Assembly: GCA_902540595.1 (NCBI GenBank) | Contig: CACBNI010000005.1 | Location: 5,716 to 69,715 of the forward strand | DNA: 64,000 nucleotides | DNA from: an uncultured Pelagibacteraceae bacterium | GTDB lineage: Bacteria > Pseudomonadota > Alphaproteobacteria > Pelagibacterales > Pelagibacteraceae | Direction of reading: 5' to 3' | Shown here: in pieces, positions 24,109 through 38,297 of the stretch | How the letters are laid out: every line of letters begins with the position of its first letter | Position numbering within the stretch: position 1 is the stretch's first letter | Position numbers and translations under genes: made by a program | The notes under the pieces: model-generated | Seen by the model: only the letters and a program-made list of their open reading frames with translations | Database searches by the model: none | Told to the model about the DNA's origin: nothing

Positions 24109-24212
24109 AAATTTTACTTATTCATCTTGTTCAATTATAAATATTAGCATAAACACTCATGAAATTCATTAATGCCCTCGTGGTGAAATTGGTAGACACA
24201 AAGGACTTAAAA
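24109..24212 (+). repeat. att-like direct repeat copy 1: 65-bp promoter region plus 5' 39 nt of tRNA-Leu(TAA)
   Basis: 104 bp identical to 33255-33358; 7 mismatches to 34988-35091; ends in the anticodon loop CTTAAAA. Confidence 0.97.
24174..24212 (+). pseudogene. tRNA-Leu(TAA) 5' half fragment
   Basis: Identical to 35053-35091; no 3' half follows. Confidence 0.95.
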
Positions 24213-24235
24213 AACATAGGGTAGAGTAAATTTAT

Positions 24236-24379
24236 AGTCTCACACAGTCTCATATAGTCTTAAATCCCAGTAAATTCTAAATTTTAAAAAAACTTTAATT
24301 ATTTTTATTGCAAAATATGAATAATAAATTCCACCAAACTAGAAACTAACTAGAAACTAAAGAGATGAAATAATATAGT
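24236..24379 (+). repeat. Left arm of cassette A: AGTCT x3 (10-bp period) and AACTAGAAACT x2
   Basis: AGTCT at 24236/24246/24256; tandem 11-mer at 24337-24358; colinear with 33382-33525. Confidence 0.9.
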
Positions 24380-24386
24380 TTTAATA

Positions 24387-25265
24387 ATGAAAAAAATTTT
24401 AGGTATCGTGGTTCTAAGTTTATTAATATGTGAAAACGTTTTTGCTGGCGTAGAGGAAGTTTTGAAAGAGATCAAAAAAAATAAAGATATAGTCCAGGGT
24501 TTTGATAAAGTTAAAGAATTTGATACTTGGAATGAATGGCGTGTTACCCCTAAAGCAATACTCAAATCAGATAAATCAAAAAGACAGCATATAGTCAAGA
24601 TTGTTAATAAATCTGATAATCATCCTGTTAGATTTGGAAAACAATCTTTAAGATTTGAAGTTAGAAATGGTGATGGCTGGGGTTGGGATGCCAGGAATGA
24701 TAGAGAAAGATCCGAACTACTAATTTGTTGTGTTAATAAAAAAACTACATGGACTGCTTGGTCACTATATTTGCCTAATGATTATGAAAAGATATTTCCT
24801 GCTAAGACTATGTTAGCACAATTCCATAATGATGCTGATAATCCACCTGCATTTGCTTTTGATAATCAATCTGAACGTCATGTAAATGAGGGAGGTGGTT
24901 ATTGGATTGCAGTAGATGAATATATAAATAAGAAATTTTTACTAAAAAAACTATTAGATCATTCAGAAACACTTGGCAGATGGAACGATATTTTAGTTAA
25001 TGCAAAATGGACACACAAGGAAAATGGTTTTTTTAAAATTTGGATTAATGGTAAACTTGCTTTTCACCACAAAGGTATGACGCAAGAAAAAGGAGAAAAT
25101 ATTGAATTTCATGTTGGTATTTACAGATCTTTTCTTTCAAGAACACCTGGGCCAGATAAAACTCAAATAGCTTATTATGATGAGATAAGACATGCAAAGA
25201 CTTGTAAAAAACTTAAAATCAATGATCTAGGATATTCTTGTAAAGATATAGAAAATCAAAATTAA
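24387..25265 (+). CDS. Secreted polysaccharide lyase-like (heparin lyase I/Polysacc_lyase-like) protein
   Basis: Signal peptide MKKILGIVVLSL; SLRFEVR.GD, ERSEL, LAQFH, G.W.D, WING, GIYR, YYDEIR. Confidence 0.72.
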   Translation: MKKILGIVVLSLLICENVFAGVEEVLKEIKKNKDIVQGFDKVKEFDTWNEWRVTPKAILKSDKSKRQHIVKIVNKSDNHPVRFGKQSLRFEVRNGDGWGWDARNDRERSELLICCVNKKTTWTAWSLYLPNDYEKIFPAKTMLAQFHNDADNPPAFAFDNQSERHVNEGGGYWIAVDEYINKKFLLKKLLDHSETLGRWNDILVNAKWTHKENGFFKIWINGKLAFHHKGMTQEKGENIEFHVGIYRSFLSRTPGPDKTQIAYYDEIRHAKTCKKLKINDLGYSCKDIENQN

Positions 25266-25266
25266 A

Positions 25267-26226
25267 ATGAAAAAATTTTTATTTTTATTATTTTTTATCT
25301 TTTTAAATTATTCATATGCAGATCCATTAGTGTGGAAAGAATTAGCTGGAGGTAAAAGTAGTGGTAATTCGCGTTTAATTAATTTACCTGAAAGTGTTCT
25401 TGATGGAAAACAATTGAGAATGAACCATTGGGATGCTTGCTGGCAGAAAGGTAAAGGACCTGATCACTGTTTGATAATCACAGATGAAATTTCAAGAGAA
25501 GATAATATCTCTATTAAATTTGAAAGTCATCCAGGTGATTGTGGGATATACAAGAAATCTAATGATAGCAAAAACAACTGGAACAATTGCTATGAGGGAG
25601 CACGACGAGTTTTTATTGGAACAAAGTATCGAGATTGGGGAAGTAAATGGCTTTCATTTTCCGTATTAATCCCTAAAAATTATATTCATTCAAATACGCC
25701 ACTTATATTCAATCAAATACATAGAAAAAGCAAAGGTGCACATTATAGAATGGGTATCTCACCTGAAGGAATTGTAAATGTAGAGTTAAGAAGTTTTCTT
25801 CACGACAATAAGTGCGTTAAAATTAGTAAAAAACTTCTAGGAAAAAATATTTGTAGAAAAATAAGTGAAAAATATCACGATCCACCTTTTTTTGATTTAA
25901 AACATTTTTCTAATCACTTGGGAAAGTGGATAGATGTAATAGTGCATACACCTAATAAGAAAAGTTTACTCATGTGGGTTAACGGAAAAAAAATTATAAA
26001 TATGGAAAATAAAATGCCAGGAAACTCATCATTCTCGTCAACAAATTTTGGTATTTATCAGCCAAGAGCAAATCAAATAAAGGCTAAAGGAAAAAAAGTG
26101 GGAACTAAATGGAATTATGAGGAAGCTTCAACAGTTCAAATTTTATATATAGATGAAATAAGATTTGCAGATCAATGCAATCAATTAAACTTAATAAATT
26201 TAGGTTATAATTGTAACAAACTTTAA
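25267..26226 (+). CDS. Second, divergent secreted polysaccharide lyase-like protein
   Basis: Signal peptide; SIKFE..PGD, FNQIH, GKWID, WVNG, FGIY, YIDEIR; C-terminal C..L....LGY.C shared with the upstream paralogue. Confidence 0.65.
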   Translation: MKKFLFLLFFIFLNYSYADPLVWKELAGGKSSGNSRLINLPESVLDGKQLRMNHWDACWQKGKGPDHCLIITDEISREDNISIKFESHPGDCGIYKKSNDSKNNWNNCYEGARRVFIGTKYRDWGSKWLSFSVLIPKNYIHSNTPLIFNQIHRKSKGAHYRMGISPEGIVNVELRSFLHDNKCVKISKKLLGKNICRKISEKYHDPPFFDLKHFSNHLGKWIDVIVHTPNKKSLLMWVNGKKIINMENKMPGNSSFSSTNFGIYQPRANQIKAKGKKVGTKWNYEEASTVQILYIDEIRFADQCNQLNLINLGYNCNKL

Positions 26227-26276
26227 CATTAGTTGATTTTAAACAATGTTAGAAAAAAATCAGGTATTAAATTAGC

Positions 26277-27491
26277 ATGAATATAAAATCTTATAAATTT
26301 TCTCTTTATGATTTTGCTAATTCTGCCTTTACAACAGTTATTATAACTTTTGTTTTCTCAAATTATTTTGCGGAGTCAATTGTTCAAGATATGGTTAATG
26401 GCCAGGCATATTGGGGTTGGGCCATTTCAGTATCAGGACTATGCATTGCATTAAGCGGACCCTTTTTAGGAAATTTAGCTGATAAGAAGAATTTAAACTC
26501 AATTATCTTAAAATCAAGCACCTATTTATGTATACTTTTTACAGCAGCATTATGGTTTGCAAAACCATCTTCTGAATATATTTTATTTACCTTAATCATA
26601 GTTTGTTTGGCAAACTATTTTTATGAACTAAGTTCTATTTTCTATAATTCATTATTAGTTCATTCAGCTGACAAACAACATGTGGGAAAGGTGTCTGGTT
26701 TTGCTTTTGCGCTGGGGTATTTAGGTGGCATTGTCACACTTATTTTGACTATTATTTTATTAATTCAATCAAATTATTTAGTCGATTTAGATCAAAAAAT
26801 TAATTATAGATCAACTGCCATTTTTGTAGCTCTTTGGTTCCTCATTTTTTCCTATCCATTATTAAATCAAACTAAATATAAAAAAGTTGAACCAAACAAA
26901 AAGAAATCAAATAGTTTAAAAAAGATTCTTTGGAATAACGGTCTAACTAATACAACTCGTTTTTTGTTTGCAAGGCTACTTTATGCTGATGGTTTAAATA
27001 CCATTTTTGTCATGGGAGGAATTTTTGCTGTTGGTGTATTTAAATTATCAATAAATGAACTTTTAATGATGTCTGTTTTAATGAATGTTGCTGCTTTAAT
27101 AGGTGCTAGTTTTGGTGGATACTTCAATGACAAATATAATTCAAAAAAAACAATTTCCTTTTCCTTGATATGCCTTATTTTTTTCTCCATTTTAATCATT
27201 TTTACACAGTCAAAAATTAATTTTTTTATTTTTTCATTTTTCTTGGGATTATTTATAGGACCAATACAATCTGCTAGTAGGGTCATGATAACTAAATTAA
27301 CAAAAATTGAGGATCAAAATAAAGCTTTTGGGTTATTTGCTACTTCTGGAAAGCTGACGTCTTTTTTTGGCCCATTTTTAGTAGGAACTATTACTTTTAT
27401 AACTGAAAATCAAAGGATAGGTTTTGCCTCAGTTCTCTTACTGCTTATTTCTGGATGGATCATATTGTATAGAACCAAAGGATTAAAATAA
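26277..27491 (+). CDS. MFS transporter (UMF1/Atg22-like)
   Basis: YDFANSAF, FYNSLL, SG.AFALGYLGG, ASR, FGLFA..GK; about 12 TM segments. Confidence 0.85.
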   Translation: MNIKSYKFSLYDFANSAFTTVIITFVFSNYFAESIVQDMVNGQAYWGWAISVSGLCIALSGPFLGNLADKKNLNSIILKSSTYLCILFTAALWFAKPSSEYILFTLIIVCLANYFYELSSIFYNSLLVHSADKQHVGKVSGFAFALGYLGGIVTLILTIILLIQSNYLVDLDQKINYRSTAIFVALWFLIFSYPLLNQTKYKKVEPNKKKSNSLKKILWNNGLTNTTRFLFARLLYADGLNTIFVMGGIFAVGVFKLSINELLMMSVLMNVAALIGASFGGYFNDKYNSKKTISFSLICLIFFSILIIFTQSKINFFIFSFFLGLFIGPIQSASRVMITKLTKIEDQNKAFGLFATSGKLTSFFGPFLVGTITFITENQRIGFASVLLLLISGWIILYRTKGLK

Positions 27492-27573
27492 TGTTTATAC
27501 ACAGAGGATTAATTGAATAAAAATTTACTTAATAAACCTTAAACAAAAGTTTGATGTTTGTTAGTTAATTTTA

Positions 27574-27990
27574 TTAACAACAACCTTTTTTTTCAGTATC
27601 TGATCTTGCGCCGGCTGTATTATAAATCTCAGCATCTTCCATTGTGTGATAAGCTTCCCAAGCAACTCCATTTGGATCATTTACCCAAGATTTTTCTGAT
27701 TTTGCATAACAACATGTTACCTCACCATCAGAGTAAGTAGATATATCAGCTTTATCTAAATTAGTTCTTATATCGTTTAGTTTCTCAACTTTATCAACCT
27801 GTATTCCTAGATGATCTACTCCTAAAGTTTTTACTCTAGTAGATATTGCAAAATTAATCTTAGGATCTTCTAAAATCCATTGAGCATAATCTTCTTTTAC
27901 TTTTGTTGGTTCAGATTTAAATAAATTTTTATAAAAATTTATGCTTTCGTTTAAGTTTTTAACTCCAAGATGTAAATGTAGTCTTTGCAT
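27574..27990 (-). CDS. ArsI/CadI-family VOC metalloenzyme
   Basis: RLHLHL.V..L..SI.FY, DHLGIQV, TCCYA.SEKSWVNDP.GVAWEAY, C-terminal CC. Confidence 0.85.
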   Translation of the reverse strand: MQRLHLHLGVKNLNESINFYKNLFKSEPTKVKEDYAQWILEDPKINFAISTRVKTLGVDHLGIQVDKVEKLNDIRTNLDKADISTYSDGEVTCCYAKSEKSWVNDPNGVAWEAYHTMEDAEIYNTAGARSDTEKKGCC

Positions 27991-28172
27991 ATTTTTAATT
28001 CTTTTAAAAATTACAATACATTAAATTTTATAAAATTAAATTACAAATTTATTACAAAGAGTATCTAATCCATAAAATAAATTACAAATAGAAAAGAATG
28101 AGACATTAAAAGCTATTTAATCCACACTAATTTAAGCAATTAGACTCATGTTTTAGGATTTGTTAATCTTAG

Positions 28173-28340
28173 ATGATGGATCAACTAATACCTGTAGTAT
28201 ATATGATAGGAGTTCTATTATTGGTTCTGCCTGCTTTTTTACAGTCTAATTCTAAATTAAAACAATTATTAACTAATTTTACTATTTGGATTATCATAGT
28301 GCTTATAATTTTAACTTTTATTTATTTATTTAAGGTTTAA
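28173..28340 (+). CDS. Small two-TM membrane protein, 55 aa (not in ORF track)
   Basis: Translated by hand: MMDQLIPVVYMIGVLLLVLPAFLQSNSKLKQLLTNFTIWIIIVLIILTFIYLFKV. Confidence 0.6.
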   Translation: MMDQLIPVVYMIGVLLLVLPAFLQSNSKLKQLLTNFTIWIIIVLIILTFIYLFKV

Positions 28341-28384
28341 TGAAGAAACTTTTAGGGATCGTAATTCTGGATTATAGGATTTAA
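28340..28384 (+). pseudogene. Signal-peptide stub MKKLLGIVILDYRI*
   Basis: ATGAAGAAACTTTTAGGGATCGT nearly identical to 37225; similar to the start of 24387. Confidence 0.7.
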
Positions 28385-28386
28385 TA

Positions 28387-28422
28387 GGATAACTAGTAAT
28401 AGACTAGTAAGTAGAGAGATAA
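28387..28422 (+). repeat. Orphan internal copy of cassette A right-arm motif
   Basis: 36 bp GGATAACTAGTAATAGACTAGTAAGTAGAGAGATAA identical to 33212-33247. Confidence 0.95.
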
Positions 28423-28428
28423 TAAATA

Positions 28429-29004
28429 TTAAGTTATACTTTTTTCATCTGGTTCAAGGCATAAACCTTGAGCCTCTGTAATTTTCTCAGGTAGATTATC
28501 AAGTTTCCAGTTATTGTCTGTTATATCAAAATAATCCTGAGGATCAAAGCCCGGTTTATTAACTAACTCAATACCAAAAAAATTATTATCCTCATACCAA
28601 GCCATCATTGCACTAATCATATCTTTTACACTTTTTAATCCTGGTGCTTGCATCATGACTATATTCATGTCTCGAAAAAGATTTTGCACTAAAACAACCT
28701 TAGCTGCATCATCAATTGGATGGCCATTTATTTTAATTGGGAGTGTTTTATCTTGAAGACTTTGAATATTTTTATGACTTTTCATTGTTGTGAAAGAAAA
28801 TAAAATTCCCATCCTTTCACAATCACCTTTGTTCATAAAAAACCTTAGTTTATCTCCATGAGTTACTTCACCATTTTTAGCAGTAACTACAAAAGTATCA
28901 AATTCCTCAACATACCATTGATCTTCATCTGCTTGAGCATGGTATGCAAATAAAATTAAAAAAAGAAATAAATGAACTGAAACAATAAGTAATAGCTGCC
29001 TCAT
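28429..29004 (-). CDS. Hypothetical secreted protein
   Basis: 191-aa ORF with a signal peptide ending AQA. Confidence 0.7.
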   Translation of the reverse strand: MRQLLLIVSVHLFLFLILFAYHAQADEDQWYVEEFDTFVVTAKNGEVTHGDKLRFFMNKGDCERMGILFSFTTMKSHKNIQSLQDKTLPIKINGHPIDDAAKVVLVQNLFRDMNIVMMQAPGLKSVKDMISAMMAWYEDNNFFGIELVNKPGFDPQDYFDITDNNWKLDNLPEKITEAQGLCLEPDEKSIT

Positions 29005-29186
29005 GATTTAAGCTCCACTTTGAAGCCATTATTCCTAAAGATTTTGATTATTTTTTCCCAGACTAAGCTGTTATGTGCACCTGGGCTTACTTCGAATTTG
29101 AATGTTTTTTTGTAGACGGGATCGCAGTTATCGTATGCAACGTAAGCACTGACATGACAGTACTTCATGACACGGTCTATTTCCAT
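29001..29186 (-). CDS. Small hypothetical protein
   Basis: 61-aa ORF with an ATGA overlap to the downstream gene; start uncertain. Confidence 0.4.
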   Translation of the reverse strand: MEIDRVMKYCHVSAYVAYDNCDPVYKKTFKFEVSPGAHNSLVWEKIIKIFRNNGFKVELKS

Positions 29187-29408
29187 ATATTGGAACTCCT
29201 ATTGTTGGTTGAGGTTTTGTGGGTTAACAATTTATAGTTAGTAATGGTTCCACTCCTTTTCCTATCAAATGGTTTACGAAACAAGGATGACAATGAAAGG
29301 AACCGTAAACGTGAGAAAAGGAATGAAATCCAATGCATAATTTTAATTAATATTTTCATTTGGTGAAAAGAAGTTAAAAAAAAGTTATAAATGTGGTCTA
29401 TAAAAATT

Positions 29409-29684
29409 ATGAAAATTACTTTAAAATTTTTATTTTTACTTTTCTTTCTTTCCTCGTGTGTGAGTGGTAATTGGCAACATCAAAGTGGAAATAACACAAA
29501 TCTTTCACTAGATAAAAATTTTTGTAATAGTTTTGCAGATTCAAGGTTTCCTACCTATCTTTGTAAAAATCCTTTAATGTGTGCACCTGACGAAACCAGC
29601 AAAGTAATATCAAGTATAGCTGAAAATAGTGCAGCCTACAGAAATTGCATGTATGGAAAAGGATATAATTTGCAGGATAATTAA
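29409..29684 (+). CDS. Small Cys-rich lipoprotein
   Basis: MK + hydrophobic stretch + LSSC lipobox; YRNCMYGKGY C-terminus. Confidence 0.7.
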   Translation: MKITLKFLFLLFFLSSCVSGNWQHQSGNNTNLSLDKNFCNSFADSRFPTYLCKNPLMCAPDETSKVISSIAENSAAYRNCMYGKGYNLQDN

Positions 29685-29734
29685 GGAAAAAAAATTTAAT
29701 TTTACACTCAAATCTGACTGTGATTAGATTACAA

Positions 29735-30196
29735 ATGTCAGAAATAAACCTCTGGGACAAGTATCGAAATGAAAGCAAGCAAACTATTTGTATAATTGGT
29801 GTATTAATTCTCTCATCTAAGCTTTGTGTAGCTGACGGACATTTTTCTTTAGATGAAGAAGAGGAAATTTTGAAAATTATTCCACACGAACCTCAGCAAA
29901 AAAGAATATTAATGAGAATTTTAGAGGAAGGCGCAAAAGATCTAAATCCGATTTCTTTTCATGCTCAAAAAATAAAAAATTTAATTGGTAATGATCAGCC
30001 AGATTTTTTAGAATTTATAGTAGCTGTTCTATATAGATTAGCTCACAGCGACCATGTTTATCACGACGAAGAAGATATGGCCATAAGAGAGGTTGCAAAA
30101 ATATTTGGAATTACAAAAACTAATTGGCAATTTACTAAAGAAACTTTCTTCAAATTTTTTAAATACAAGTTTTTAAATACGAGACAAAATGCCTAA
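29735..30196 (+). CDS. TerB/DjlA-N-like domain protein
   Basis: ADGHFSLDEE and LAHSDHVYHDEE..AIREVAKIFGI, the paired TerB-like motifs. Confidence 0.75.
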   Translation: MSEINLWDKYRNESKQTICIIGVLILSSKLCVADGHFSLDEEEEILKIIPHEPQQKRILMRILEEGAKDLNPISFHAQKIKNLIGNDQPDFLEFIVAVLYRLAHSDHVYHDEEDMAIREVAKIFGITKTNWQFTKETFFKFFKYKFLNTRQNA

Positions 30197-31961
30197 TTTA
30201 GATAATATACATTACAAATTTTTTCCTAAGGCGAAAACTTCACCTTACGGAAAAACTTTAATAAAATTTGCTTGGGCAATTGAAATTATAGTTGCAACTG
30301 TTGGATTAACTATTGCTGCATTTTTGTATATGAGAGCATTAGACGGATCTGAAGATATCAGCACTGCAACCACATGGACAGAAAAACTTACTGAAAACAT
30401 TGATGGAGTAATAGTATCCCTGGCTTTTGTAGTTGTTTCAGTTGTTGAGCTTACTAAAATTCCATTAGCAACTGCTTTTTATTATGCAGCTAAAGCTAGA
30501 TGGAAAATAACCTTCGTTGTAGCACTAATATTAATAAATATATCAACATTCGAGACAATAATTCAGGGATTTGAACTTGGTTTTTATAAAAGATCTAATG
30601 AAGTAGCTAAAGTTAAGCAAAAACTGGAGGATATAAATACACAAATTAATCAAAAGACAGTAGGTGCTGGTGAGGACCGAAAGTTACTTTCAGAAAAAGA
30701 GGATAAAGTTTTAGAACAAATTAACAGCTACAATAAAGATATTACAAAAATAAATATTAATAAAAATAAGCAAATAAGTGACTTAAAAACTGAATTTACT
30801 TTAGCTAATCCACAATTAAAAACTAAACAAGACCAAATTGACTCTGAAAGACAGTCATTAAAAGAATTTAAAAGTTCATCTGATGATAAAATTCAAAGTA
30901 GACGAGTTGAAATTTCTAAACTTGAGAATATTACAGAGTTCAAAGGATCTTTCACTTTATCAAGAAAAAAGCAAATGGAAGAAAGAGATTTGAAAGTCTC
31001 TAAATTAAGAAATGATTTAATTTCATTTGAGAAAACAATAACAACAGAGATAGAAAGAAAAGAAAATTTTATTAGAGATCTCCAAAAAGAAAAAGATACT
31101 CTTGAAGGAACAATAGGTGCAGACATTCAAGAAAAAATTTCAGATATCGAAAAAATTGCTGAACTAGATAAAGAAAATATAGATTTAGATCTTAAAACTA
31201 AAAGAAGTGAACTAGCAAATATCCAGCTTCAAATAAGTGATTTTGATAACAAAACTCTTAACTACTCTAATGAAGCAACAAAACTCAAGGAACAATGTGC
31301 AGAGGTAGCTGATGAGTTGGAAAAAGTTGCCTTAGATAACCAAACCTACAGGTTTGCAATTAAAATTAAGTCTTTTAGAAAATGGCTTTCCAATTTTAGT
31401 TTTTCTTCAATCCTACCTTGGAATTGGGGTGATGAAAAAATAAATACAGAAAATAAAGATCCAGAAATTGTCGCAAGCTCAGAAAAAAAATGCTCCAAAT
31501 CAAGCGCAGCTTTAATTTCTGATGATGATCTAAATTTTGCATTCTGGTTATGGTTTGGAACGCTAGCTTTTGTAATTTCAGTAATAGGAACATTTATTGC
31601 TTTAGCTGGTCTTCATTTACAGGATGAAAGAATGCATGAAATTAGAAACAGACCTATGAAGGAAAGATTTGCCAGATTCTTTAGAAATATCGCATGGATA
31701 CCTGTTTATATTAATAAGTACATTTGGGCTGGAGTTAAAAGGTTTACCAAACCTAAAATTGTTGAAAAAGAAGTTATAGTTGAAAAGGAAGTTGAAAAAA
31801 TAGTCGAAAAAAATGTAGGTGAAAAAATTATCTATGAAAAAGTTGAGGTACCAAAAGAAGTTGTTCGAAAAGAAATTGTATACGTTCCTCTTCCTACAGA
31901 CGATGAAGAACTATTGAAAAAAGGTCCATTTAGGCCAGATGAAAAAGATAAGAAAAAATAA
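30189..31961 (+). CDS. Multi-TM protein with long coiled coil and VEK-rich tail
   Basis: About 3 N-terminal TMs, roughly 250-aa heptad-rich region, a C-proximal TM, VEKEV repeats. Confidence 0.75.
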   Translation: MPNLDNIHYKFFPKAKTSPYGKTLIKFAWAIEIIVATVGLTIAAFLYMRALDGSEDISTATTWTEKLTENIDGVIVSLAFVVVSVVELTKIPLATAFYYAAKARWKITFVVALILINISTFETIIQGFELGFYKRSNEVAKVKQKLEDINTQINQKTVGAGEDRKLLSEKEDKVLEQINSYNKDITKININKNKQISDLKTEFTLANPQLKTKQDQIDSERQSLKEFKSSSDDKIQSRRVEISKLENITEFKGSFTLSRKKQMEERDLKVSKLRNDLISFEKTITTEIERKENFIRDLQKEKDTLEGTIGADIQEKISDIEKIAELDKENIDLDLKTKRSELANIQLQISDFDNKTLNYSNEATKLKEQCAEVADELEKVALDNQTYRFAIKIKSFRKWLSNFSFSSILPWNWGDEKINTENKDPEIVASSEKKCSKSSAALISDDDLNFAFWLWFGTLAFVISVIGTFIALAGLHLQDERMHEIRNRPMKERFARFFRNIAWIPVYINKYIWAGVKRFTKPKIVEKEVIVEKEVEKIVEKNVGEKIIYEKVEVPKEVVRKEIVYVPLPTDDEELLKKGPFRPDEKDKKK

Positions 31962-32698
31962 TGTCTGATGAAAAAATTCAATATGATGTTCATGATTATG
32001 ACCCAGTTAATAAATACATTGATGATCAAGCAAGATTAAAAAGATCTGCAAGTACTTGGAGATATGCTAAATCTTTAACTCTAGTCATGGTTGGTGCAGG
32101 AATTCTAGCTTTACTTTTAGCTTGGGCTTATTATTTATATAAAAAACCACATAGACTTGTTAGTTTGAGCGAAATTGAACAAAAGGTACTTAAGAATGAA
32201 GAGAGATTAATTGAAAATGAGAGAAGGCTTCCTACAGAAAAAGAGATTCAAACAAATACTTCCTCTAATCTAACTAAATCCGAAATTAATAAAAGAGATC
32301 AAAAAATTTTAGAATTAGAAGATAAATTAAAGAATGATCCAACAAATCAGGACCTCAAGGATAAGGTTGTAAATTTAAAGGCAGAGAAAAAAGAATTACA
32401 AAAAAAATTAAATCAACTTAATCAAGTTCAGACAAACGTTATACATTTTAAATCGCAAAATACTAAACTTGGGAATAACGATGTAAGGGTTGTAACAAGA
32501 CTCCATTATGATGATCCAAGAAACTTAAATCCTAATGAAATTACATGTTATATCCAATTTGATAATCCTGATATTCCAAAAATAGAACTCTCAAATAAAA
32601 ATGACAATTCTTTTTATTTATCAAACTATAATAAAACAAAATATTCTATCAACGATCAACAAATCAGAGATTTAAAAAATAGATATTGTCTTTATTAA
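31961..32698 (+). CDS. Single-TM coiled-coil hypothetical protein
   Basis: One N-proximal TM, coiled-coil, TAATG coupling on both sides. Confidence 0.75.
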   Translation: MSDEKIQYDVHDYDPVNKYIDDQARLKRSASTWRYAKSLTLVMVGAGILALLLAWAYYLYKKPHRLVSLSEIEQKVLKNEERLIENERRLPTEKEIQTNTSSNLTKSEINKRDQKILELEDKLKNDPTNQDLKDKVVNLKAEKKELQKKLNQLNQVQTNVIHFKSQNTKLGNNDVRVVTRLHYDDPRNLNPNEITCYIQFDNPDIPKIELSNKNDNSFYLSNYNKTKYSINDQQIRDLKNRYCLY

Positions 32699-33189
32699 TG
32701 AGAAATTTTTTCATTTTAATAATTTTTTTTATTCTTCCATTTAATTATTGTGAAGCTTATGAAATTAAAGTGGTTGATGGAGATACAATTATTCTTAATG
32801 GTGAAAAAATAAGATTCTCAGGGATAGATACTCCTGAGAGTTATTATCGCGGAAAAAAACAAATCTGCTATGATGGAAATAATAAGATATTTTGTGGAGA
32901 CATATCAAAAAAAGTTTTAATTAATAAAATAGCTAGCAATGAAGTATCATGTATCAAAGAAAAAAAACCAGACAGATACAAGAGAATACTTGCTGAGTGT
33001 TTTGTAAATAATGAGAGTCTTTCCAAATATTTAGTTAGAAACGGTTATGCATTTGATTATGCTTATTATTCAAAGAAAAAATTCGCTAAGGATGAACAAT
33101 ATGCAAAAAAAAATAAACTTGGATTTTGGAAAATTGAATTTGATTACCCTTGGATTTGGAGGAAAAAAGTAAGAGAAGGAAAAATTTAA
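32698..33189 (+). CDS. Thermonuclease (SNase-like) family protein, exported
   Basis: VVDGDTI, IRFSGIDTPE, DRYKRILA, LVRNGYA, AK..KLGFW; signal peptide. Confidence 0.92.
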   Translation: MRNFFILIIFFILPFNYCEAYEIKVVDGDTIILNGEKIRFSGIDTPESYYRGKKQICYDGNNKIFCGDISKKVLINKIASNEVSCIKEKKPDRYKRILAECFVNNESLSKYLVRNGYAFDYAYYSKKKFAKDEQYAKKNKLGFWKIEFDYPWIWRKKVREGKI

Positions 33190-33198
33190 TATTTGTTA

Positions 33199-33249
33199 AT
33201 AGGACTTTATGGGATAACTAGTAATAGACTAGTAAGTAGAGAGATAAAA
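33199..33249 (+). repeat. Right arm of cassette A: ACTAGTAA x2 (11-bp period) plus AGAGAGATAAAA
   Basis: First repeat 104 bp before the tRNA fragment, the same offset as 34949 relative to 35053. Confidence 0.9.
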
Positions 33250-33254
33250 TTAAA

Positions 33255-33359
33255 AAATTTTACTTATTCATCTTGTTCAATTATAAATATTAGCATAAAC
33301 ACTCATGAAATTCATTAATGCCCTCGTGGTGAAATTGGTAGACACAAAGGACTTAAAAT
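33255..33359 (+). repeat. att-like direct repeat copy 2: promoter region plus 5' 40 nt of tRNA-Leu(TAA)
   Basis: Identical to 24109-24212; tRNA fragment at 33320-33359. Confidence 0.97.
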
Positions 33360-33381
33360 AGTTTGAGTTGGTGAATTTCAA

Positions 33382-33525
33382 AGTCTCTAATAGTCTCAAA
33401 TAGTCTTATTCCCTTATAATCCTATATATTTTAAAATCATTGGATTACTTTTATTGAAAAATCATAATAAATAATATTCAGATTCTCGGAACATTCTCGG
33501 AACTAGGCAGATAAAATGATATAGT
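33382..33525 (+). repeat. Left arm of cassette B: AGTCT x3 and ATTCTCGGAAC x2
   Basis: AGTCT at 33382/33392/33402; tandem 11-mer at 33482-33503. Confidence 0.9.
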
Positions 33526-33562
33526 AAAATTAATAGAACACAAATCAACATTTAAAGAATTA

Positions 33563-34645
33563 ATGAAAAAATGGGATTTTAATAAAATTAAATTATCAGC
33601 AAAAAAATATAAAACAAAGGAAGAGTGGAGACAGGGAAAAAACACATCATATTATACAGCCGCAGATAGAGGCTTATTAAATAATAAAATTATAGTTGGA
33701 CATTTTTTAGAACCTAAAAGATGGACATTAAAAAAAATTGTTGATGATGCTAAAAAATATAAATTTAAAAAAAATTGGTACGAAACACCAAAATCATCTT
33801 ATGATGCTGCTAGATCAAGAGGATTATTAAAAAATAAAGAAGTAATTGGTCATTTTAACAAAACAATATATCCATCAAAGTGGACATTAAAAAAAATAAT
33901 TGCAGCAGCCAAAAAGTTTAGTACCAAAAAAGAGTGGCTAGATGCTGAAAAAACTAAAGTATGTTTTTCGTACAGAGCAGCAAAAGAAAGAAAACTTTTA
34001 TTTGATAAAAGGGTTATTGGGCATTTCAAAAATATGGATCCAGCAAAAAAGTGGACTTATTTAAATATAATCAATACGGCTAGGAAATGTAAAACTTTGA
34101 AAGAATGGAGAGAAAAATACCCGTATGCGTATCACAGAGCATCAAAAACTAGGGTTTTAAATAAAGTTTCAGGACATTTAAAGAGAATAGGCCATAAATA
34201 TCTAAGATGTATTTATACAATAGAAGTTAGGGGAAAAAAAATAATTTATATAGGCTTGTCATTTAATTTAACAAAGAGATTAGCGGAACACCTTAATAGT
34301 AAACGTTTTAAAGATATCAAAAAGATTTATGGAAAAAATTGTTTAATTGTAAATCAGGTAACCAAGTACTTGCCAGTCAATAAAGCTGCTAAAAAAGAGG
34401 ACATATTAATTTCAAAATACAAAAAAAAGGGTTTCAAAGTTCTTAATAAAAAAAGTGGTGGTGATTTAGGGTCAATAGCTAGTAAATGGACCAAAGAAAA
34501 AGTTATACAATCTGCTAAAAAATTTAAAACTCAAAAAGAATGGAGAGCAAAAGTACCTTCAGCATATGCAATAGCAAAAAGGAAAGGTTATTTAAAATCT
34601 GCGCAAAAATTTCTTTATGTTCAAAAAGAAAAAATAAGATATTAA
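33563..34645 (+). CDS. GIY-YIG nuclease with five helical repeats of about 50 aa
   Basis: CIY...IYIGLS..LTKRLAEH...E...LN core; repeats W(T/D)..KI...AKK(Y/F).T..EW....AY..A...LL. Confidence 0.8.
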   Translation: MKKWDFNKIKLSAKKYKTKEEWRQGKNTSYYTAADRGLLNNKIIVGHFLEPKRWTLKKIVDDAKKYKFKKNWYETPKSSYDAARSRGLLKNKEVIGHFNKTIYPSKWTLKKIIAAAKKFSTKKEWLDAEKTKVCFSYRAAKERKLLFDKRVIGHFKNMDPAKKWTYLNIINTARKCKTLKEWREKYPYAYHRASKTRVLNKVSGHLKRIGHKYLRCIYTIEVRGKKIIYIGLSFNLTKRLAEHLNSKRFKDIKKIYGKNCLIVNQVTKYLPVNKAAKKEDILISKYKKKGFKVLNKKSGGDLGSIASKWTKEKVIQSAKKFKTQKEWRAKVPSAYAIAKRKGYLKSAQKFLYVQKEKIRY

Positions 34646-34671
34646 TTAATTAATATATTTATAAAAGTCTT

Positions 34672-34929
34672 ATGGAATTTCTTGGTTTATTTATAGGAAA
34701 TATGTTTTTAATGTATTTAGGACTTTTCCTATTTGCATGTATTTGGTGGTACAGTTGTAAATGGTTTTTTGTTTTATTAGTTTTAGTTGGTGAAAAATTT
34801 TTTAAAAAAGACAGCTGGCAATACAATATTTATATGTTTACTTTTGTTGGTGGGGGTGGACTTGTAACAGTATATTTATTTATTTGGCTTTTTTTATCAA
34901 TATCAAAAGGAGAGTGGTTAACGTTTTAG
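34672..34929 (+). CDS. Small two-TM membrane protein
   Basis: 85-aa hydrophobic ORF inside cassette B. Confidence 0.65.
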   Translation: MEFLGLFIGNMFLMYLGLFLFACIWWYSCKWFFVLLVLVGEKFFKKDSWQYNIYMFTFVGGGGLVTVYLFIWLFLSISKGEWLTF

Positions 34930-34931
34930 TT

Positions 34932-34982
34932 ATTGGATTTTATAGGACAACTCGGAACAAACTCGGAAACAGAGAGATAAAA
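34932..34982 (+). repeat. Right arm of cassette B: AACTCGGAA x2 (11-bp period) plus AGAGAGATAAAA
   Basis: Repeats at 34949 and 34960; colinear with 33199-33249. Confidence 0.9.
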
Positions 34983-35005
34983 TAAAAAAATTTTACTTAT
35001 TAGCC

Positions 35006-35034
35006 TTGTTCAATTATAAATATTAGCATAAATA
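35006..35034 (+). promoter_or_regulatory. Putative sigma70 promoter of tRNA-Leu-nadK (copies at 24127 and 33273)
   Basis: TTGTTC-17 bp-TAAATA (TAAACA in the other two copies), ending 18 bp before the tRNA 5' end. Confidence 0.6.
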
Positions 35035-35052
35035 CTCATGAAATTAACTTAT

Positions 35053-35138
35053 GCCCTCGTGGTGAAATTGGTAGACACAAAGGACTTAAAATCCTTGCCG
35101 CTTGCGGAGTGCCAGTTCGAGTCTGGCCGAGGGCACCA
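35053..35138 (+). tRNA. tRNA-Leu(TAA)
   Basis: Acceptor GCCCTCG/CGAGGGC, anticodon arm AAGGA-CTTAAAA-TCCTT, long variable arm, GTTCGAG, CCA. Confidence 0.97.
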
Positions 35139-36123: not shown

Positions 36124-36131
36124 AAATTTAA

Positions 36132-36179
36132 TGGTGCCCCCGCACGGATTCGAACCGCGGACCTATTGATTACAAATCA
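36132..36179 (-). repeat. att-like duplicate of the 3' 48 nt of tRNA-Thr(TGT)
   Basis: Identical to 38222-38269; identity stops just past the anticodon loop. Confidence 0.97.
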
Positions 36180-36271
36180 GGAATAAAAATTCAAAAAGAT
36201 AAATACTATCAACGTTAATTGAAAGTTATTTCAAATCTGTACACACTATAGGCACAGTGGTATATTTTTTT

Positions 36272-37225
36272 ATGAAAGATAATCTAGGAAGACTACAAAA
36301 AGTTGATTTAAGAGAGATTTGGGAAAAAGAGGATACTCATTTCACGCCTTGGTTAGCAAGAGAAGAAAATATTGAACTACTTGGTTCAGCAATAGATATG
36401 GATTTAGTTGTTGAGGCAGAGGAGAAAGACGTTGGTCCTTTTAGAGCTGATATACTTTGCAAAGATATAGCTTCGAACAATTGGGTATTAGTAGAAAATC
36501 AACTGGAGAAAACTGATCATAAACATCTTGGTCAACTATTAACTTATGCAACTGGTTTAGATGCTGTCACAATTATTTGGGTAGCTTCAGATTTCACTGA
36601 AGAACATAGAGCAACACTTGATTGGCTGAATAAGATAACAGATACACAATATAATTTCTTTGGAATTAAAGTTGAACTTTTCAAAATAGGGGACTCTAAA
36701 GTTGCACCAGTGTTTAACGTTGTCAGCAAACCTAATAACTGGTCCAGAAGTATTTCTTCTGCAGCGTCTAAGATAGCTAACGAGGATATTGGTGAGACTA
36801 AAGTATTTCAGTTAAAATTTTGGACAGCTTTATGCGAGGCTATTAAGGCTAAAAATGATAGTCCTTTAAAAATTCAGAAACCATCTCCAAAACATTGGCA
36901 CACTTTTTCAATCGGAAAGTCTGGAGTTAATCTTTCTATGACATTTAATACAAAGGAAGATATTTTGGGTATAGAAATTTATATAGTTAAAGATCAAAGT
37001 ATATTTGAGAGTTTAGAACAAGATAAAGAAAGCATTGAGACTGAAATAGGTCACAAATTAAGTTGGCAACCACTTCCAGGTAGATCAGCTTCAAGAATTA
37101 AATTAGATAGAAATAGTTCAGTTTTAGATAACGAAAATGAGTGGAATGAATACATTGATTGGTCCATTGAAAAACTTGAAAAATTTTATCACGTTTTTCG
37201 AAGCAAAATTAAGAACCTAGATTAA
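36272..37225 (+). CDS. PD-(D/E)xK-like nuclease fused to a DUF4268-like domain
   Basis: E...FTPWL, RADIL, VENQL..TDHKHLGQLLTYA; C-terminal FW..L, IETEIG..L.W, ASRI. Confidence 0.8.
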   Translation: MKDNLGRLQKVDLREIWEKEDTHFTPWLAREENIELLGSAIDMDLVVEAEEKDVGPFRADILCKDIASNNWVLVENQLEKTDHKHLGQLLTYATGLDAVTIIWVASDFTEEHRATLDWLNKITDTQYNFFGIKVELFKIGDSKVAPVFNVVSKPNNWSRSISSAASKIANEDIGETKVFQLKFWTALCEAIKAKNDSPLKIQKPSPKHWHTFSIGKSGVNLSMTFNTKEDILGIEIYIVKDQSIFESLEQDKESIETEIGHKLSWQPLPGRSASRIKLDRNSSVLDNENEWNEYIDWSIEKLEKFYHVFRSKIKNLD

Positions 37226-37260
37226 TGAAAAAACTTTTAGGGATCGTGGATCTGGGTTAA
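37225..37260 (+). pseudogene. Signal-peptide stub MKKLLGIVDLG*
   Basis: Near-identical to the stub at 28340; overlaps the upstream stop (TAATG). Confidence 0.7.
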
Positions 37261-37270
37261 CTTTATTTTA

Positions 37271-38101
37271 ATGCGATGCATCTCTTGGAACATAGGTAGA
37301 AAAATAAAGTTAGTTGAAGATCAACTAAAAATTATCGAAGATAAAAAACCAGATATTATTGCTTTCCAGGAAGTCACATATAATAGCTTTGGAAAAATAA
37401 AAGATTTAATTAGATCCAAGTATAAATTCATAAATTATAGTTTAGACCTTATTAACGATAGCAAAGTATTAGTGGGACCAAGAAAACTGGGTGTTTTAGT
37501 TGCTACTAATTTTAAAACAGTTTTAAGAGATATAAACGAATTTAAACTACCTTGGCGTGAGAGAATTCTTAATCTTGATATATATACTGGTTCGAAAAAA
37601 TTTAACTTTAATAGTGCATACATACCACCAGGCTCATCTAATGGATGGATCAAAATTGAAACTCTGGAAGGTATATTCAATGGTTTAAATAAAAAAACAG
37701 ATGAACCAAAAATCTTATGTGGTGATTTTAATATACCACAAGCAGAAACTTTTAAGGGACAATTAATAACTTTTGCTCAAAAGATAAAACAAAAAGGCAA
37801 ACCTAAATTAAAAAAAAGCTTTAGAGGTGGAAGTGGCAGTAGGTGGGATTTAGCAGAAAGAAATTTATTTGAAAATTTAAAAACTTCAGGAATACAGGAT
37901 GCATTTAGAAAAGTTAACGGTTTTAAAAAAGAGGATTATTCTTTTGAAATAATTAGAAAAGGGAAGGTGGTTTCAAGAAGAAGATTTGATCATTTTTTCA
38001 CATCAGATGATATTAAGATAATGAATATTGAATACTTACATTCTTATAGAGTAGAAAAATTAAGTGACCACTCTCCTATAATGATAGATTTTGAGTTATA
38101 A
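37271..38101 (+). CDS. Endonuclease/exonuclease/phosphatase (EEP, ExoIII-like) protein
   Basis: ISWNI, FQEV, AYIP, CGDFN, RFDHF, SDHSP catalytic motifs. Confidence 0.9.
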   Translation: MRCISWNIGRKIKLVEDQLKIIEDKKPDIIAFQEVTYNSFGKIKDLIRSKYKFINYSLDLINDSKVLVGPRKLGVLVATNFKTVLRDINEFKLPWRERILNLDIYTGSKKFNFNSAYIPPGSSNGWIKIETLEGIFNGLNKKTDEPKILCGDFNIPQAETFKGQLITFAQKIKQKGKPKLKKSFRGGSGSRWDLAERNLFENLKTSGIQDAFRKVNGFKKEDYSFEIIRKGKVVSRRRFDHFFTSDDIKIMNIEYLHSYRVEKLSDHSPIMIDFEL

Positions 38102-38115
38102 CGACTACTTGATTG

Positions 38116-38168
38116 ATACACAATCCATACACACTCTATACACAATCAAAGCACACTATGAGCACAGT
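38116..38168 (+). repeat. Five CACANT repeats at an exact 11-bp period (arm of cassette T)
   Basis: CACA at 38119, 38130, 38141, 38152, 38163; two more at 36242 and 36253. Confidence 0.92.
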
Positions 38169-38221
38169 CAGGATAGAAATTTAACTTTTTGAAAAAATTT
38201 AACGTTGATTTTATTGAGTGA

Positions 38222-38297
38222 TGGTGCCCCCGCACGGATTCGAACCGCGGACCTATTGATTACAAATCAATTGCTCTACCAACTGAGCTACAAGGGC
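38222..38297 (-). tRNA. tRNA-Thr(TGT)
   Basis: Reverse complement GCCCTTGTAGCTCAGTTGGTAGAGC-ATTGA TTTGTAA TCAAT-...GTTCGAATCC...CACCA, 76 nt. Confidence 0.97.

Follow-up and report, generated by a model that had tools for sequence, protein, structure and literature searches.

The window, a 64,000-nucleotide stretch that forms part of contig C5 in a 1.2-Mb, 88% complete Pelagibacteraceae genome, holds a small cassette at tRNA-Thr(TGT). The cassette is a real integrase-less member of a large family and a variant of CIME-type islands. Its ends match the attachment sites of satellite-like elements at the same tRNA (helpers), which makes it likely that the cassette was moved by a borrowed enzyme. 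Going by this match in sequence, we consider it probable that the integrase of a passing satellite-like element integrates and excises the cassette in trans.

A cargo-only unit and its relatives

Positions 36131-36179 are an exact copy of 38221-38269, at a spacing of 2090 bp. ARAGORN places tRNA-Thr(tgt) at 38222-38297 on the minus strand. The earlier note described a tRNA 3′ duplication enclosing a 2090-bp unit, and this is borne out by a repeat that is exact and 49 bp long, with 48 bp inside the tRNA. Identity of the core copies stops just past the anticodon loop, where a 7-bp crossover likely lies at a deduced position of 36170-36176. We infer that the 3′ half of the intact tRNA was supplied by the cassette. 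The proposed design of att core, arms and nothing but cargo also holds: cores and arm repeats are in place, the contents are two plus-strand cargo ORFs only, and profiles of two integrase families match no tyrosine recombinase in the unit. Empty sites exist: at 4 of the 30 loci inspected (L017, L026, L028 and L030), the same flank leads directly to a single intact tRNA. The unit is laid out as follows.

36131-36179, minus strand: left att core, the leftover 3′ part of tRNA-Thr(TGT), an exact repeat
36190-36204 and 36208-36218: left copies of two inverted motifs (14/15 and 11/11 positions), possible host-factor sites
36237-36258, plus strand: left arm, two 11-bp repeats (a TACACA word and a GGCACA word), 59 bp from the core
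36258-36266, plus strand: predicted promoter of the extended -10 type (TG-n-TATATT), followed after 5 nt by the first ATG, based on conservation among cassettes
36272-37225, plus strand: cargo 1, 317 aa, with a C-terminal DUF4268 (PF14088, 7e-32; PADLOC PDC-S11, 4e-124)
37222-37258, plus strand: broken signal-peptide stub (MKKLLGIV...), stop at codon 12
37271-38101, plus strand: cargo 2, 276 aa, endonuclease/exonuclease/phosphatase (EEP) family (PF03372, 3e-10)
38103-38114: conserved GACTACTTGATT block just outside the right arm, similar in cassette and helper ends
38114-38168, plus strand: right arm, three TACACA-type repeats (38114-38146) and two AGCACA-type repeats (38147-38168), with helper matches
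38179-38193 and 38199-38209: right copies of the two inverted motifs (14/15 and 11/11 positions)
38221-38297, minus strand: intact tRNA-Thr(TGT) with the right att core (38221-38269) inside it, based on the exact repeat and the tRNA call

Cargo 1 is a candidate anti-phage defence nuclease, judging from its domain and its PADLOC match. DUF4268 is reported in MdgA and MdgB, which have been tested as modification-dependent anti-phage nucleases (PMC12366544), and it also occurs with GmrSD (PMC4619093). A comparison of cargo 1 with PDB sequences gave no match and thus no solved relative. Cargo 2 falls under the NCBIfam xth cut-off.

The core pattern occurs in 143 of 201 genus genomes, and 58 of these 143 carry at least two copies (counted from a table). 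We fetched 60 regions, mostly picked for extra core copies and therefore not a random sample, which together with the window's locus gave 71 units between cores; the multi-copy genomes G037, G151, G169 and G185 are not represented among them. Sixty-three units share this cassette's layout, seven are larger with ends that match a large-integrase class, and one (L033) bears an integrase of 451 aa, the only match to profiles of two integrase families in the 71. A profile search found no integrase remnant in the 63 units. Cargo is varied across these integrase-less cassettes and end geometry is fixed. The left pair of repeats starts 59 bp from the core in 60/63 cassettes, roughly one helical turn nearer than the 69-71 bp of helpers. 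The right array is mostly lost in 8/63 cassettes; where kept (55), it ends 51-54 or 61-64 bp from the core, as against about 88 bp in helpers, an offset that is not a whole number of helical turns.

The left end may also drive cargo expression. After the left pair, TG is present in 63/63 cassettes and TG-n-TAnnnT in 55/63, and an ORF of at least 60 aa begins 4-8 nt past the hexamer in 53/63. The pair itself overlaps the predicted -35 region, with at least four of six matches in 62/63 cassettes, and helpers have a Shine-Dalgarno-like block where cassettes have the promoter-like one. We predict that cargo transcripts are leaderless and arise from a promoter that overlaps the left arm. RNA contigs from two studies start at 36299 and 36320, 27-48 nt inside the predicted start, although these are weak data. 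This overlap would also suit arm arrays that serve as decoys or regulators, binding satellite integrases, hindering satellites or switching cargo expression upon a satellite's arrival, instead of serving cassette movement. The five repeats of two types on the right side and the candidate defence function of cargo 1 point the same way, but such a role leaves the exact att boundaries, the left-right word matching described below and the fixed core distance unexplained. We regard it as improbable, and it can hold alongside trans-mobilisation.

The same design recurs elsewhere in the source genome, in line with the earlier note: like cassettes are found at tRNA-Leu(taa), tRNA-Gly(gcc) and a CAT-anticodon tRNA. 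Two tandem cassettes at tRNA-Leu(taa) (window positions 24174-35138, with 5′ duplications at 24174-24212 and 33320-33359) have their own paired repeats and cargo that includes TerB, SNase and GIY-YIG genes. A 3.9-kb integrase-less unit at tRNA-Gly(gcc) (G000:C6:48794-52796) has a 37-bp 5′ duplication and GACACA-type repeats similar to those of a small integrase element at tRNA-Gly(gcc) (L408). At the CAT-anticodon tRNA (G000:C9:1715-17700), an element encoding a 474-aa integrase and the cargo-only unit behind it both carry GTTGGTAAA repeats, which makes a helper-cassette tandem within the source genome.

Other insertions share the tRNA-Thr target. A second integrase-less class at the same tRNA end (L040, L042, L049, L061, L064, L078 and L081) consists of 3.5-7.6 kb units with large ORFs, whose ends are almost the same as the ends of L102, an element with the large integrase. 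At four loci (L081, L108, L110 and L111), it is the 5′ part of this tRNA-Thr that the insertion duplicates, and the tRNA is therefore targeted from both sides.

Arm words and their integrases

The reported array of CACANT words in 11-bp phase is present, with five copies at 38119, 38130, 38141, 38152 and 38163 and a pair at 36242 and 36253. The run of five is the only phased run of three or more in the 1.2-Mb genome. From the 1391 CACANT sites in the genome, about 1.5e-10 runs of five and 0.8 pairs are expected, so the pair alone is at chance level. The matching 17-mers of the left and right ends agree at 15/17 positions. As a single Thr-specific motif, CACANT does not stand up; it lumps three helper arm words, and different words are found in other Thr cassettes. 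Words related to the arm words of this cassette also occur at Asn, Leu(gag) and Gly elements. One of these is a 5.5-kb satellite-like element at tRNA-Leu(gag) (L120:7089-12653) with an integrase, terS and GAGCACACT repeats; the repeats are close to the AGCACA word of our cassette, although its integrase shares just 26% identity with the Thr family.

By its base matches, the right array is a composite in which the TACACA and AGCACA types each match a different helper integrase. The TACACA repeats match helpers L140 and L153 at 21/22 and 21/21 bases, and the AGCACA repeats match helper L141 at 21/24 bases, with L144 also matching. This TACACA-AGCACA composite is found in 12 of the 55 cassettes with a right array, 34 of which contain at least two helper words. 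In total, 218 of 279 cassette repeats are one of 19 helper words. The two ends also tend to agree: a word is common to left and right ends in 40/55 cassettes, against a shuffled mean of 11.6 (0/10,000 shuffles reached 40). Related cassettes are not independent in this test, and after dereplication sharing stands at 26/41 distinct signatures, against 7.0 in shuffles.

The two motifs inverted between the ends likewise check out, at 14/15 and 11/11 positions. The CAAC..TAAT core of the left motif region is kept across cassette left ends. The left core-side bases have drifted from the helper sequence. Reading the motifs as IHF sites by the E. coli consensus finds no support, with no enrichment over shuffles in cassette ends (at most one mismatch: left 24/63 versus 18.2, right 13/63 versus 17.3), though the Pelagibacter preference may differ. 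HU/IHF-family genes number three in each of five complete genomes and two in the source draft.

Integrase-encoding elements at this tRNA, another expectation of the earlier note, were found, and their attP carries the same repeats as the cassette. The enzymes that match are lambda-like integrases, 326 aa long, encoded by satellite-like elements of 6-7 kb. On a viral-collection contig (L123/L124), the tRNA-Thr core is joined to paired 11-bp repeats on both sides, and the junction adjoins a 328-aa tyrosine integrase and a terminase small subunit. The integrase family comprises 174 clusters at E 1e-60 or better. Our helper set is made up of 66 of 81 loci (L124, L126-L205) with an intact start and at least 60% identity, distant matches being left out. 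Their targets are mostly tRNA-Thr and in some cases tRNA-Asn. In 50/50 Thr cases the left pair starts at the distance given above; for the right pair, the usual gap to the core is 88 bp. Helper circles are indicated: 41/66 loci were classed as attP-like on both sides, and six helper contigs have terminal repeats. One helper (L203) is integrated beside rlmB in a Pelagibacteraceae genome, the same neighbour as at the cassette locus.

Two groups of helper loci depart from this picture. In L169, L182, L186 and L131, the attP junctions have different arm words on their two sides, as expected where different elements join in tandem. In L151, L153, L139 and L201, cargo-like genes come after the integrase and no replication module is visible; these loci are possible helper-to-cassette intermediates.

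Cognate integrases are rare in the hosts. A profile search of 400 genus genomes returned one Thr-type and one Asn-type enzyme, and the same kind of search found none in the 88% complete source genome. Two other integrases were considered as helper and set aside. The arms of the 451-aa Arm-DNA-bind_3 integrase (L033; relatives L101-L103) match the seven larger units instead, and scans of viral sequences found no close relative of this large enzyme. The arms of the source genome's own C9 integrase differ from those of this cassette. A host enzyme could in principle move the cassettes in place of a satellite integrase, as a single tyrosine recombinase match, typically near 320 aa in length, is seen in most genomes of the genus, and the source genome has one such conserved Xer-like recombinase (C24). 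We consider this very improbable, because no arm-binding family was found on the Xer-like protein and the cassette words match satellite attP words.

The arm word appears to be read by the integrase N-terminus. Among 48 distinct full-length integrases, nearest-neighbour prediction gave 42 testable cases. The nearest neighbour by residues 3-28 had the same arm word in 40/42 and that by residues 61-325 in 2/42, where the C-terminal figure is lowered by the exclusion of pairs near-identical in both parts. Thirty-seven integrase pairs have a different word despite less than 6% C-terminal difference, and 48 pairs have the same word despite more than 15% difference. The word follows the N-terminus across diverged C-termini, so N-terminal segment and arm word seem to be traded as a unit, including between elements that target Thr and Asn. 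In a structure model, the helper integrase N-terminus comprises three strands and a helix, and the best fold match of the model is full-length lambda integrase (341 columns). Lambda-type integrases are heterobivalent and bind att sites of arm type and core type. By analogy, we infer that the N-terminal three-stranded sheet binds the 11-bp repeats.

Possible routes of movement and cargo exchange

In the mechanism we favour, a satellite-like element at the same tRNA would enter the cell and its 326-aa integrase would integrate or excise the cassette, gripping the 11-bp repeats through the N-terminal sheet. Mixed arm words would allow more than one helper type to act on the cassette. The left arm would double as a promoter for leaderless cargo transcripts, and recombination at the signal-peptide stub would swap cargo genes between cassettes. 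Points against trans-mobilisation are the scarcity of the cognate integrase, the drift of the left core-side bases, the out-of-step spacing of the right arms and the loss of most of the right array in 8/63 cassettes.

Near-identical cassettes or ends have spread between diverged genomes. One cassette, delimited by the cores, recurs at 98% identity in L044 and L076, where its place in the array is not the same and the flank is 83% identical. The right end of our cassette is 98% identical to that of L038, where the flank is 78% identical and the cargo unrelated. Homologous recombination through shared ends could be behind much of this spread.

Such recombination is also part of a reading in which the cassettes are CIME-type remnants that move only in cis with an adjoining helper, or by homologous recombination via the tRNA, shared ends and flanking genes. 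The definition of CIMEs fits, as far as the accessible text of PMC5704250 goes, and the ends offer about 150 bp at 90% identity for ordinary recombination. In L137 a helper immediately follows a right end of cassette type, and in L139 and L201 such an end is joined to an integrase. No cassette circle came to light either. The circular junction that the earlier note proposed to look for was not seen outside tandem arrays, with no right-end-to-left-end joint among those listed from the contigs of eight sequencing runs, although contigs can hardly tell a cassette circle from a tandem array. None of 24 viral-contig core matches had cassette ends; they comprise one helper attP and 23 whole tRNA genes. 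Depth is higher over cassette ends than over cargo, as summed contig depth and not as copy number. The cassette ends are, however, unlike decayed helper ends. Their left offset of 59 bp is nearly invariant, words are matched at both ends, and a promoter-like block replaces the helper's Shine-Dalgarno block. Independent deletions would not converge on one layout, but a single old deletion followed by spread would. We rate the remnant reading as unlikely, if well short of negligible, and retain trans-mobilisation as the better account.

Cargo seems to be exchanged between cassettes with different ends. Cargo 2 has a 91% DNA match in the L046 cassette, which has other arms, and cargo 1 has 68% relatives in cassettes with other arms. 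A stretch resembling the signal-peptide stub is present in 25/63 cassettes at no more than eight mismatches, and the source genome has three close stub matches, all within Thr or Leu cassettes. Of 14 internal breakpoints of shared DNA, nine fall at the stub, against 1.0 expected if uniform. This is only suggestive of the stub as a cargo exchange point, because there are about five independent cases and gene borders would show enrichment in any event. The first unit of L057 has a Thr-type left arm, then a signal-peptide stub, then a Leu-type right arm, which suggests exchange between the Thr and Leu systems.

More tentatively, and with more doubt than conviction, we raise the idea of a dedicated two-level Pelagibacter cassette system that parasitises satellites. 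Satellite integrases would diversify by trading a 28-residue arm-reading module along with its word, and the cassettes would respond with mixed arm arrays open to several integrase types, a fixed leaderless promoter and reshuffling of cargo at the shared stub. The roughly 17 natural domain-word pairs would then also offer a ready-made recognition code for domains of this kind.

The SAR11 pangenome is open and contains few mobile elements that can be recognised as such. In a 2026 survey covering 135 complete genomes, SAR11 islands are explained as prophage remnants with decayed structural genes (10.64898/2026.04.03.716430). In the present data, insertion at this tRNA occurs in 58/143 genomes and a cognate integrase there in 1/400. 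If trans-mobilisation is true, it would provide a defined, testable route of single-gene exchange, candidate defence genes included, in the most abundant ocean bacterium, by elements of a kind overlooked by integrase-centred island finders. Movement by a borrowed enzyme would help explain gene swapping among streamlined ocean bacteria.

Comparison with known systems

A literature search, with subscription papers mostly outside its scope, found no account of arm-bearing integrase-less SAR11 cassettes or of this arm code. Reported pelagiphage integration sites are Cys, Leu and Arg, and tRNA-Thr is unmentioned in the accessible part of that report (10.1101/410191).

The ends resemble lambda att sites in that phased direct repeats flank a short crossover and the helper integrase folds like lambda Int. 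By sequence match, the arm repeats are shared with the attP of the cognate integrase, and the structure model and the tracking of the word by residues 3-28 support an N-terminal arm-binding domain on that enzyme. Unlike in lambda, one tRNA has about 17 arm words, linked to an N-terminal segment that can be exchanged, the cassette lacks an integrase and the E. coli IHF consensus is not enriched.

The helpers fit the descriptions of VEIMEs (PMC9618062) and tycheposons (10.1101/2020.12.28.424599), with a tyrosine integrase, a size of 6-7 kb and marine streamlined hosts, and also with a primase/helicase-type gene and sometimes terS. Tycheposon integrases are given as 910/937 tyrosine and the rest serine (10.1101/2020.12.28.424599). 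About 20% of VEIMEs are reported to have no identified integrase, and concatemers occur in virions (PMC9618062). The cassette lacks a site-specific integrase of its own, and arm sites and att-armed cargo-only cassettes are absent from the accessible text of both descriptions.

Integrons and CALINs line up small gene cassettes whose recombination ends are conserved and whose cargo varies, and they rely on attC hairpins and IntI. Our cassettes likewise form arrays of small units with conserved ends and varied cargo. They differ in targeting a tRNA and in having double-stranded arm-type ends, a predicted promoter of their own and no IntI; their ends are explained by the tRNA duplication and arm repeats. 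Additive flexible genomic islands (PMC10872708) share repeated tRNA ends, variable genes and streamlined aquatic hosts, but their description, in its accessible part, has neither arm sites nor a cognate recombinase.

The closest counterparts are CIMEs, the cis-mobilisable elements defined among ICESt1-related islands (PMC5704250). As in CIMEs, integration and transfer genes are absent from the cassette, attL and attR are kept, and units are stacked one after another where the target gene ends. With regard to decay, the cassettes have helper-like arms but depart from helpers consistently in geometry and in spacer sequence; with regard to cis-mobilisation, one tandem with a helper after a cassette was observed (L137). 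CIMEs are described there as ICE-moved decay products in cis, whereas the helpers here are satellite-like and not conjugative, and these cassettes have a compact standard layout, a built-in predicted promoter and mixed arm words.
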